IMG/VR virus record: IMGVR_UViG_2667527998_000010
Source of the DNA: a virus
Taxonomy: Duplodnaviria > Heunggongvirae > Uroviricota > Caudoviricetes
Direction: 5' to 3' (one strand)
DNA length: 15,861 nucleotides
A program made the position numbers. This document shows positions 12,001 to 15,000 of this stretch, piece by piece; the stretch's first letter is position 1; each line of letters starts with the position of its first letter.

Positions 12001-15000
12001 TGCGACCAGGCATCACTACCCGCAAAGATAATTACCTCTGTGTCTTTGTGTTTTATTCCGCGTGGCTGTTTTTTTACGTTCGGTGCCAGTTTCATTTTTT
12101 ACCCCTGAATACGTTAAGCATCTTTTTTATTTCCTGAATATTGGCGCGTGCTTTCTCCCTGCTGGTTGGTTTACTGCGGGGCGCTGCCTGTACCAGCGTG
12201 AAATCACGCCGGAATTGATAAACAGGCATCACGCAATCATATTCGTAACCTTCACGGCGGTAGGTGATGCGCCGTTCTGCCACGCCTTTAATCGTTACCA
12301 TGCCGCCGTACTGGTCGCGGTAAATATCACCGCGCGTAAATTTAGGGTGAGTGTTGCCACTGGCAGTTAAGCCAGAATATTTAAGTTTCATTATTTTTAT
12401 TCTCCGGTGTGTTGTTCTTTATATCTGTCGTGCAATAGATCTATTTCTTGCAGTTCCATTATTACAGGCTCAAGAAGCGTTATTAATGCCGTGGCAATTC
12501 TTGATTTTTGTTTGTCGCGTTCATTGTCGCCAAGTGTTTCAAGCCATATGCGCAATATTTCCAGCATGTTTTCACTGTGAGAAAGTGCAAGAAATGCGCG
12601 GTCTATTGTTTCGTGGTAAATATCACGCATATTAATCCCCGTCCGTCGTTTTTCTTAAAATAACCTCTGTCACGAAATCAGCATAATCGGCGGCGATATT
12701 CAGTACATCAAGCCCGTTGATTTATATTCTCTCGTGGAAAGTAAGAAAAAAGCCGCTCTAATAAGTTCTGGCATTGACGAAAGCGCATCAGCCGCATCAT
12801 CAGGAACGCCGGAAAATTCCTGTTTCAGGGAATTAAAACGATCATCACGCATAACCCCCCCCATTTTCACAATCGGCAACAAGAATATTTTTAGCGTCAT
12901 TCAGTGACCGCGTTGCGATGTATCGGATACATTCCAGGGCGAACTGTGTCCGGTCTTTCTGTTCTTCTCCCTGCGCAAGCTCTGCCGTGCATTCAATATC
13001 AATAAGCGCGTGCATCAGCGTAGTGAGTGCGGCGGCTGCTGCGTTCGGTGTGGTTTTATTGTGCATAGGTTTCCCCCTGACGAATACGGGCGGCGAATAC
13101 AGCAACACAACCGGACGGGCAACGGCTACGCGCTTCGCGTTCCGTCCAAGCGGTTACGTGGATGATTTGGGATTCTCCGGCACTCAGTGCCAGAAAACGC
13201 CACACAAAGGCCGTTTGTGTGTGTACAAGGTGTGGTATATGATTTACGGCAACCATAACGGCTCCTAGTTTACGTTGTTGGTTAGAAGCCCCGTTACTGC
13301 TCCTACAGTGCGGGGCTTTGCTTTTTGTGTTGATTGTGTGTAATGTGTCACTACACATAAATACATTACCTGAGGTGTAATTAACGTGTCAACACACAAA
13401 AACGAAAGGCGTGGTAATCCTCCGTTCCAGTTCCGTTTAGATCCTGACTTACGGGAAAAGATGGAAAAGGCACAACAACAGGACGGCGATGATTCTCTTG
13501 CTGCCTGGATAAAGCGAATAATCCGCAAAGAATTACAGCAACGCGGCATAGAACCCAAAGGATAAAAACTATCAGCGCCGTGGTGTGAGGTACTACGGCG
13601 CATTGCTTTACAGGCGCACACAATGACCAACGAAGAATCAACCGAAAAAACATCACCTGCACGAAAAAGACGACGCAGAAAGAAAGAGCATGAATCAGAA
13701 CGATTCGCGCCGTGTTCTTTTGCCCTTGAGAAGTACCTTAAAGAATACTCATCAAAGGAGAGAACTTCGCAGTTATGGCAACGCACTGAACCAGACTGAT
13801 TGCATTGCCCACCAGCCTGATAGCGGCTATCATCCCCGTGCTTATGTTTGGGATCACACACACAAACGGCGCAGCGGGTTATCTGTTCAGAAAGGCGGCT
13901 CCATTTCGGGGCCGCTTTTTTTATGCCTGAAAAACCCCAATTTTGTGGTTTTCCAGTTTCACCAGGGCGAACGAATCCCCGCCCACGTTCTGGCGTATAT
14001 TCAATCTTCATGGTTATAGCTCTGTGTTCAGATGATTGATGTGTGGCGGCTGCGTGCCGCCAGCGTGATTAATGAACTGCCTTGCAGCTATCCTTCCAGG
14101 CCAGAACCTCGGATAAAGACCAGCCAACGGAACGACCGCCAAGTTTACGACGTGATGGGAATTGTCCGGCCTTTTCCAGGCGGTAGCGGCATGAGCGGCT
14201 AAGGCCTGTTAGCTTTTCGCATTCTTTTTCACGTATAAACCGATCAGTGCTTAACACTATTGCCCCCTTTCGTTTCTTAAAGAGTTATTTCGTGTTCTAT
14301 TGCGTTGGGATGTGTCTGATTGTGTCAGGATGATTCAGAGTTGGCAAATGTTGAGGCCGTATGGTTTACAGAAAGAGGAATAATCAGGATAAAATCCTTT
14401 AAATTCATGTTAATACAAAGGCATAAAATATTGTTTCATGCCTTTTTTCTCGCTATTTAAAGAGTGATTCGCTAGTGTATAAAAAATCAGTAACACATTA
14501 AAAATCAGCTACTTATAAATCTGTACACTTTTTCACCTCTTGTTCGTAGTTGTTCCGCATTGTTGCTCATTGTTGCACGTTGTATCTGTTCGCATATCCA
14601 GTATGCGCATACTGAAAAAACACGAAAAAAATTATTTTCTTCTGGCTACTGGTAGCGTGGTTACGTTTTCATGTGTTCCCGCCAGTATCCCTAACCGCTC
14701 CGTCCACATATCCAGCGCATTGCGTTTAGCATCCAGATAACGGGAATGATTATAAACTCGCTGCATTCCTGGCATCTGGTGGCCTGTAAGCTGCTCCACG
14801 ACGTGAGGATCCACGCCTAAATCGTTCAGCATCGTTGTAAAGGTGCGCCGGATGTCATGTAGTGACCAGTGAGGGTGATTTAGCCTCCTGTGCGCTAATC
14901 TGCCGTACTGCGACACGCTTGTTTCCTGTTTCACTTCCCCCAGCAATAAGCCCGTGTGCCTGTTCTGCTCCACCAGCTGCGTGACGAACGGCAGTATTGC

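Follow-up and report, generated by a model that had tools for sequence, protein, structure and literature searches.

The window analysed here (15,861 nucleotides of the IMG/VR virus record IMGVR_UViG_2667527998_000010) comprises host phoQ (1-1461) and a capsid-forming phage-inducible chromosomal island (cf-PICI) with its satellite genes on the minus strand. Between alpA and an icd-like gene, which opens the early (replication) operon, lies a gap of about 800 nt. With a probability of roughly 0.6, this region is the regulatory switch of the satellite, in which a small ribbon-helix-helix (RHH) protein encoded on the plus strand would bind repeats specific to its class and repress both the early promoter and its own gene, and an antisense RNA would form a second layer of control. 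DNA binding, repression, the transcription start sites, the RNA itself and the lifting of repression are what we infer. A repressor switch facing the early operon had been proposed in a first-pass annotation of the sequence. The comparative data fit this proposal, as class-specific repeats lie on opposed candidate promoters, although repression itself is putative. Of the parts, the RHH gene, one DNA dyad and the strong terminator had been recognized, but the description was incomplete, as the switch also comprises three candidate promoters, a candidate antisense RNA and the exchangeable cassettes described below.

Class-specific repeats on two opposed candidate promoters

When one genome of each species was scanned, 73 loci were obtained, from Enterobacterales, Orbales, Pasteurellales and Aeromonadales. 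In the 83 related loci, which belong to the same four orders, the RHH gene is located between alpA and the replication operon, on the opposite strand, and at least 39 of them have an alpA homolog downstream in the opposite orientation. Translation of the loci revealed at least four versions of the β-strand region, which define classes A to D: RRGNPPFQFRLDP in class A (46 gene copies, the window included), GKGNKQIALRVEP in class B (30 copies), KRSPPYQMRLPEDF in class C (5 copies) and ERLVVQLRLDADL in class D (2 copies).

The DNA upstream of the gene follows the class of the protein. Class A loci carry GTAATGTGTCAyTACACATAAAyACATTAC, then GGTGTAATTrAC before the start codon; class B loci carry GGTATGCACCTGTCATACAC and CAGGTGTCAACC; and class C loci have two copies of the perfect palindrome GGTAATTACC at a distance of 30 bp, the second directly adjoining the ATG (5/5 loci). 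Of 44 class A loci, 37-41 have either the dyad or the GTAAyrTGT flank, compared to 0 of 36 loci of other classes. TGyCrTACA was found in 19/29 class B loci, and the motifs of classes A, B and C are each confined to their own class. This class-linked DNA is the strongest evidence for a function that the sequences provide, and binding of the repeats by a dimer of the protein is putative.

The flanks of the window (class A) and of the E. coli STEC299 locus (class C) are nearly the same. The two sequences diverge at the upstream hairpin and differ as far as about codon 45 of the RHH gene, and from there onward their DNA is identical. Since the difference is limited to this stretch, the putative operator was swapped together with the half of the protein responsible for recognition. 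Judged from the aligned loci, protein class and repeat are exchanged as one cassette, which is the pattern of immunity cassettes.

Other arrangements of the locus were seen as well. Two RHH genes of different classes stand in tandem in three loci (2769-2939 and 3001-3171 in L032; 3001-3177 and 3289-3465 in L058; 2450-2620 and 2638-2826 in L067). In E. coli 2013C-4282 (L002), a 101-aa YlcI/YnfO gene (3420-3725) and an open reading frame (ORF) of 75 aa are located in front of the 59-aa gene (4231-4410). These arrangements look like stacked immunity cassettes.

In the window, the class A operator block GTAATGTGTCACTACACATAAATACATTAC occupies 13340-13369 and spans the -10 hexamers and the putative start sites of both promoters. 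Its core dyad, ATGTGT-CACT-ACACAT at 13343-13358, is situated exactly between the two -10 hexamers. The first-pass annotation had placed this dyad on the likely -10, which agrees with its position in the -10/start-site region and is strengthened by its conservation in class A. A second palindrome named there, CACACAAA-n5-TTTGTGTG at 13201-13221, is present as described but was ruled out as an operator: it lies in the coding sequence of the icd-like gene (codons 12-19) and is missing from the other class A loci. As RNA it folds no better than shuffled sequences (z score -0.9), and it overlaps the -35 hexamer of the candidate antisense promoter P_as (see below), not that of the RHH or the early promoter. 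Perfect dyads are frequent in the window, with 35 having 6-nt arms (about 18 in shuffles) and 2 having 8-nt arms (0.9 in shuffles). Both palindromes are unremarkable per se, and it is conservation within the class that lifts 13343-13358 above chance. A function of this dyad as an RNA hairpin was ruled out, as class A variants (ACATGT...ACACAT) lose complementarity without compensation. A 19-nt operator block is unique within the window; no extra operator copies were found near alpA or elsewhere in the window, where TGTGTCA occurs three times compared to 1.7 expected.

A perfect 15-nt inverted repeat, GCCGTTTGTGTGTGT at 13210-13224 and ACACACACAAACGGC at 13856-13870, has its copies 631 nt apart and is of low complexity. 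A third related copy is found at 13392-13404. The repeat is kept in L001 (STEC299) and L010 (Shigella flexneri) and degraded in L002. Pairing in the manner of seqA and seqB of P4 was rejected on account of this degradation and the low complexity, and the repeat is taken as a recombination scar or as chance.

The candidate promoter of the early operon lies on the minus strand at 13363-13392, with the -35 hexamer TTGACA (13392-13387), the -10 hexamer TAATGT (13368-13363) and a start at about 13356. The TTGACA overlaps the start codon and codons 2-3 of the RHH gene, and the spacer (13386-13369) holds the second class-specific block. In 73 of 80 distinct loci, covering every class, the start codon followed by TCAAC forms a minus-strand TTGACA, with a -10-like hexamer 16-18 nt further on, and the class-specific repeat fills the spacer of this putative promoter. 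The codon of Ser2 is nearly always TCA, though synonymous sites are otherwise saturated. The constraint imposed by the -35 hexamer on the first codons would explain why Met-Ser-Thr is invariant at an N-terminus that is disordered.

The candidate promoter of the RHH gene (plus strand, 13318-13346) has the -35 hexamer TTGCTT (13318-13323), a 17-nt spacer, the -10 hexamer TAATGT (13341-13346) and a start at about 13353. The best σ70 match falls in this one fixed place, directly after the upstream hairpin, in the majority of class A, B and C loci and has the form TTGnnn-17-TAATGT, TACACT or TACAAT. The putative starts at about 13353 (plus) and 13356 (minus) are only a few bases apart; thus, two RNA polymerases would compete for the same DNA. 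Occupancy of 13340-13369 and of the spacer would block the early promoter and the RHH gene's own promoter alike. This is the geometry expected of a PICI master repressor, i.e., a gene transcribed away from the replication operon with candidate operators on the promoter of that operon.

The 59-aa protein and its coding strand

The RHH gene extends from a GTG codon at 13386 to the stop codon at 13565 on the plus strand, where the first-pass annotation had located it, and is preceded by a Shine-Dalgarno (SD) sequence, GAGGTG, at 13372-13377. Among 44 distinct class A genes, the ratio of non-synonymous to synonymous variation (pN/pS) was 0.19 in this frame with a pS of 0.79, 0.36 in the frame of a 248-aa minus-strand ORF and at least 0.85 in the remaining frames. 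By these substitution patterns the ORF is a genuine, strongly conserved gene with synonymous sites near saturation. Homologs of the protein fall into 117 clusters with 50-98% identity from Enterobacterales, Mannheimia and Frischella, all of them unnamed or labeled 'phage protein'. Of 5,426 complete E. coli genomes, 425 have a match to at least 80% of the region 13200-13620, which covers switch and gene.

The 248-aa ORF (13265-14011, minus strand) is called a pseudogene by PGAP. It is long and open, gene callers give minus-strand ORFs of 274-277 aa over the position of the RHH gene in two relatives (L004 and L005), and an Icd-like pseudogene is annotated in RefSeq for such relatives. If this ORF were real, the 59-aa ORF would be accidental, which we regard as hardly credible. 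Its frame has third codon positions in common with both plus-strand ORFs of the region, an arrangement that most often yields shadow ORFs. Interruptions of this frame were seen in 21 of 81 distinct relatives, whereas the plus-strand ORF, which was used to collect these relatives, keeps its length and ends. In addition, its pN/pS is worse than that of the plus frame, and no family match was obtained for it in Pfam or NCBIfam, whereas the plus-frame product folds with high confidence. Because of the shared wobble positions, the interruptions and the higher pN/pS, it is considered an artefact, namely an antisense shadow of both plus-strand ORFs, as had been suspected at first reading. The accompanying statement that the RHH gene was missed by annotation is correct for some genomes only. 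In STEC299 (L001, 3613-4206) and in O157:H7 F8797 (L083, 2711-3304), RefSeq/PGAP places a minus-strand 'Icd-like' pseudogene over the unannotated gene, but in other RefSeq genomes it is a hypothetical protein (WP_000103621.1 in one of them).

For the 59-aa protein, AlphaFold2 with a family alignment predicted two helices (residues 20-33 and 38-52) with pLDDT values above 90. The preceding segment 12-19 is extended with alternating hydrophobic residues (F14, F16, L18); no strand is modeled there, as expected when an intertwined dimer is modeled as a monomer. The 25 Foldseek matches listed are nearly all RHH or RHH-like proteins, including AmrZ, NikR, VapB and Arc, and none of them is significant. 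A G-x-S/T/N turn between the two helices marks the RHH (MetJ/Arc) superfamily. In the family studied here, the helix turn has an invariant D33-G34-D35, followed two residues later by S, T or N in almost every aligned sequence, whatever the class. Arg17 of the strand does not vary either, and both features fit the RHH pattern. Thus, the strand-helix-helix topology of about 45 residues, the inter-helix turn and the structural neighbors are all those of the superfamily, and by the structure model the fold of the protein is RHH.

Profile searches gave matches below threshold only. No Pfam match was obtained for the window protein, for which the VapB antitoxin model of NCBIfam gave an E-value of 0.012. 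DUF3950 (Pfam) matched a class B relative at 3e-4, below the cut-off. Among 38 diverse members, the sub-threshold Pfam matches included DUF3950, RepB-RCR_reg, Arc, RHH_10, RHH_1, RHH_7 and HicB, beside unrelated chance matches; E-values among relatives were 0.0016 for RepB-RCR_reg, 0.002 for Arc, 0.03 for RHH_1, 0.04 for RHH_10 and 0.13 for HicB. PDB sequence searches with the single protein and two profiles returned nothing significant. An hhalign comparison of the family profile with the 101-aa YlcI/YnfO protein gave no support (probability 0.5%). The protein had been described as Arc/Mnt-like. The RHH-type fold stands, as judged from AlphaFold2 and the Foldseek neighbors, but membership in Arc/Mnt does not, as scores stay below the cut-off of PF03869. 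By every curated profile test the protein is outside the Arc/Mnt family, and its closest relatives by sequence are the uncharacterised YlcI/YnfO and DUF3950 proteins.

Helix 2 and the tail, AWIKRIIRKELQxRGIEPK (residues 38-58; 13497-13559 in the window), are almost invariant across classes even at about 50% overall identity. This C-terminal part could be a conserved partner surface or a recombination anchor. As it is near-invariant while the DNA-reading half varies, it suggests a conserved protein partner, and satellites are known to encode factors acting on helper phages. The protein might therefore act mainly on the helper phage or as a cofactor of the switch (with AlpA or the integrase), the C-terminal helix being the functional part and the repeats serving autoregulation only. 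We consider this quite unlikely. The operator block is without a second copy in the window, operator and promoter geometry already supply a local target, and relatives occur in only 4 of 50,697 phage records, one of which, the 15.3-kb Pasteurella Pmp8, is of satellite size.

RNA structures and genes on both sides of the proposed switch

Upstream of the RHH promoter, a cis-antisense RNA of about 75 nt is predicted on the plus strand (13251-13325; -30.4 kcal/mol, z score -4.3) from conserved hairpins and a -10 hexamer in a fixed position. The candidate begins with a stem-loop (13251-13283) whose loop contains the anti-SD sequence CUCCU/CCUC, continues with the conserved linker UUGGUUAGA and ends with a terminator hairpin (13285-13319) and a U run (to 13325). 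This hairpin-terminator, which the first-pass annotation did not contain, is common to all classes. The RNA is complementary to the SD sequence and the start codon of the icd-like gene. Its candidate promoter, P_as (plus strand, 13215-13243), consists of a -35 hexamer TTGTGT (13215-13220), a 17-nt spacer and a -10 hexamer TATGAT (13238-13243). In 53 of 57 loci, the small stem is preceded by a TAnnnT hexamer that ends 15-16 nt in front of it, compared to at most 9 for other upstream positions, and this -10 position is kept whatever protein family the overlapping first early gene belongs to.

Compensatory changes were found by RNAalifold in 8 of 10 pairs of the terminator hairpin. Counted over the 57 loci, its stem has 449 Watson-Crick pairs; a further 92 pairs are G.U if read on the plus strand, compared to 5 if read on the minus strand. 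For the small 5' stem, 249 Watson-Crick pairs and 17 G.U pairs on the plus strand were counted against 4 on the minus strand, and the CCUC of its loop is the complement of the first early gene's SD. As the G.U pairs are readable on the plus strand, the upstream hairpin is selected as a plus-strand RNA structure, i.e., as a terminator.

This terminator is located directly before the -35 hexamer of the RHH promoter, which its T run overlaps, so that the hairpin might instead attenuate an RHH mRNA whose long leader begins at the upstream promoter, or insulate against stray plus-strand transcription. Such a role appears doubtful given the -10 hexamer fixed about 75 nt upstream in 53/57 loci, the covariation of the 5' stem-loop that displays the anti-SD sequence, and the conservation of the single-stranded linker, which together have the anatomy of a discrete cis-antisense RNA; the two readings are mutually compatible.

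No Rfam family matches the candidate antisense RNA. Searches for C4 (RF01695), isrK (RF01394), sar and others gave no match, either in the whole window at the gathering score or in 12700-14700 at E-values up to 10, and the only matches of the window search were due to chance and driven by terminators. The 'int-alpA RNA' motif RF02996, which is not in the window, is found at 6547-6612 in L003 and at 5912-5977 in L061 (minus strand). Unrelated first early proteins share the N-terminus M-A-x-x-N/Q-x-T (e.g., 13236-13256 in the window), a pattern apparently dictated by the -10 hexamer of the antisense promoter, which lies on the opposite strand of these codons.

Two features downstream of the RHH gene are likewise additions to the first-pass annotation. 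A hairpin follows the stop codon at 13575-13601 (plus strand; -19.3 kcal/mol, z score -3.7) and is, with its weak U tract (AUUGCUUUAC), probably a leaky terminator. Behind it, an ORF for a basic 58-aa protein (13623-13799, plus strand; core EHESERFAPCxF) gave tblastn matches in only 4 of the 83 loci, all of them from E. coli or Shigella. No family match was found for it in Pfam or NCBIfam. With a pN/pS of about 0.4 and a frame preserved across indels, it is probably a real accessory gene.

A small basic ORF following the gene, RHH antitoxins that commonly autoregulate, weak profile likeness to VapB and HicB and the JGI label 'HicB family' on some members would suit an autoregulated accessory or antitoxin-like regulator, which would control its own small operon (itself and the 58-aa ORF) or cargo rather than the early operon. 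This is unlikely, as no toxin partner is conserved and the terminator often follows directly after the gene where the 58-aa ORF is missing; for the same reasons a toxin-antitoxin module was ruled out. The class repeat occupies the spacer of the candidate minus-strand promoter, which is conserved and constrains the first codons of the gene through its -35 hexamer, and the position beside the replication operon is kept across four bacterial orders. Both observations also count against such a regulator.

The plus-strand unit ends at a strong intrinsic terminator (13889-13922) with a stem at 13895-13915 and a U run at 13916-13922, convergent with alpA. For 13894-13922, where a strong terminator had been noted before, folding gave -21.7 kcal/mol (z score -4.2) on the plus strand and -12.3 kcal/mol (z score -1.2) on the minus strand. 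As the plus-strand fold is stronger, partly through G.U pairs, it was assigned to the plus strand. A plus-strand terminator was found within 600 nt in 60 of 82 distinct downstream regions; many are of the type GGCGGCC...GGCCGCC-UUUGUUUU, and in many relatives the terminator lies 30-50 nt after the RHH stop codon. On the other side, the GC-rich hairpin without a U tract reported 3' of alpA was found after the alpA stop codon at 14042-14060 (minus strand; -13.9 kcal/mol, z score -3.6). It could be an RNA stabiliser, or a pause or termination signal which AlpA-modified polymerase has to get past.

Within the window, Pfam matches identify the integrase, AlpA, a D5-type primase, capsid, prohead protease, portal, head-tail connector, TerS and TerL among the ORF products. 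Further minus-strand genes are a DUF4222 gene, several small ORFs and the icd-like gene, and no tail or lysis genes are present, judged from the ORF list only. By its gene content, the element is a capsid-forming PICI integrated beside phoQ. The integrase is encoded at 14632-15861 (minus strand) and alpA at 14069-14257 (minus strand; Pfam Phage_AlpA, 5e-18), convergent with the RHH unit. The 66-aa icd-like gene (13056-13256, minus strand) starts with the ATG at 13256, behind the SD sequence AGGAG (13266-13262), and matches phage_ICD_like of NCBIfam at 1.6e-17. RefSeq relatives annotate a form of 65-66 aa, and tblastn matches of the protein were obtained in 16 loci. For the four proteins compared, a chromosome of Shigella flexneri (L010) is an exact match to the window. 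The elements of Serratia, Klebsiella and Mannheimia have the order integrase gene, optional cargo, alpA, RHH gene (opposite strand), small ORFs and D5 primase gene.

Between the strong terminator and alpA, 13962-14005 is a direct repeat of 12934-12997 (11/11 and 23/30 bases), which is part of an 87-aa early ORF. This suggests a remnant of an older gene arrangement or a recombination junction. Runs of N at 4546-4607, 5045-5191, 5455-5514 and 5738-5789 are inside packaging and connector genes and unrelated to the switch.

Proposed control and its relation to known systems

In the proposed switch, the RHH protein would bind as a dimer, or as paired dimers, to the class-specific repeats within about 60 bp. 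Once bound, it would shut the promoter of the icd-like and primase genes and limit its own synthesis, which would keep the integrated satellite quiet. The RNA of about 75 nt, transcribed from a promoter within the first codons of the early gene, would block translation of that gene at its ribosome site. After induction by a helper phage, transcription started at alpA may, in analogy to P4, continue across the convergent unit and into the early operon, whose repressed promoter would be bypassed. The same read-through would be antisense to the RHH unit and may lower expression of the RHH protein. It would also reconcile a repressor with the induction of a Gram-negative PICI by AlpA alone (PMC6092414).

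Several results weigh against this reading. Overexpression of AlpA alone induces EcCICFT073 (PMC6092414), so that any repressor must be overridden or bypassed by AlpA. The Mannheimia relative (L006) also has immunity RNAs of the C4 and isrK type (matches at 3481-3568 and 3631-3717, minus strand) just downstream of the same RHH switch, and the RHH protein need therefore not be the only or the main immunity factor. The promoters are consensus predictions, and the class A -10 hexamers (TAATGT) are weak. Classes A and C share the putative base-contacting residues (P, Q, R), yet their repeats differ; specificity must thus lie partly elsewhere. Finally, neither the window protein nor any relative reached a curated RHH threshold in Pfam or NCBIfam. 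The YlcI_YnfO_N model (NF041551) matched residues 17-53 with 20 bits (E-value 5e-4) at a cut-off of 30, and Pfam Arc (PF03869; gathering score 20.4 bits) matched a class C relative with 14.3 bits (E-value 0.038), the best member having an E-value of 0.002.

The immI region of P22 has the Arc and Mnt repressors, the overlapping promoters Pant and Pmnt and the sar antisense RNA. It is closest in design, with small RHH repressors acting on overlapping opposed promoters together with an antisense RNA. In contrast to P22, the protein described here is outside the Pfam Arc family, each switch has one repressor gene instead of two, the operon concerned comprises the icd-like gene and satellite replication genes instead of an antirepressor, and the specificity classes are exchangeable. 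Closest in position are the CI RNA of P4 (seqA/seqC, PLE/PLL, Vis) and immI of P1 (C4 RNA-icd-ant), which likewise lie in a segment from an AlpA/Vis homolog to a replication operon whose first gene is icd- or kil-like. There, too, it is the translation of the first early gene that is controlled, and a bypass by read-through from the alpA/vis promoter is likely. Transcription from the late promoter of P4 passes vis and eta and reaches the replication genes (PMC10111431). The candidate factors of the window differ from those of P4 and P1 in being a protein and a cis-antisense RNA from the opposite strand, not a trans RNA processed from the same strand.

In role, the counterpart is Stl/Rpr of the Gram-positive PICIs (SaPIs), a regulator transcribed away from the excision and replication operon and presumed to keep the island quiescent. 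Stl is a much larger helix-turn-helix protein and co-oriented with int, whereas the 59-aa RHH protein is convergent with alpA and int. The nearest family is YlcI/YnfO (NF041551; DUF3950) of lambdoid prophages, a 101-aa member of which occupies an equivalent tandem slot in some E. coli relatives; these proteins are longer, and the 59-aa protein scores below the curated cut-offs. No description of the function of YlcI/YnfO was found in the literature searched. Type II RHH antitoxins (VapB, the C-terminal domain of HicB, CopA) have the same fold, usually autoregulate and are among the structural neighbors, but the conserved downstream toxin gene is absent here.

For Gram-negative PICIs, the master repressor has been described as unknown and AlpA as the activator, and whether such a repressor exists, and why these islands would differ from the Gram-positive ones in this respect, has been stated as an open question (PMC6092414). 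No RHH or other dedicated repressor of Gram-negative, AlpA-type PICIs was found in the literature searched, in line with the first-pass annotation. Recent surveys name YlcI/YnfO or HicB only as accessory genes. The 'repressor' of EcCIMP1 was rejected as a precedent, as it is an unrelated PerC/ANR-like cargo protein. Tentatively, and with less confidence than for the locus itself, the RHH family may supply the master repressor so far missing from AlpA-type Gram-negative PICIs and cf-PICIs, with the cassettes as immunity types, a previously undescribed cis-antisense RNA as partner and the C-terminal helix as a handle for derepression by helper phages or by AlpA read-through.

Gram-negative PICIs and cf-PICIs spread virulence and defence genes. 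As 425 of the E. coli genomes searched carry a matching stretch, the result applies well beyond the window. A recurrent annotation error is corrected: in E. coli O157:H7 and other genomes, the true plus-strand gene is hidden under a minus-strand 'Icd-like pseudogene'. A repressor/operator cassette on the replication promoter, possibly joined by an antisense RNA, makes the question of the repressor directly testable and, if the proposal is true, the cassette classes would explain immunity types from satellite to satellite.

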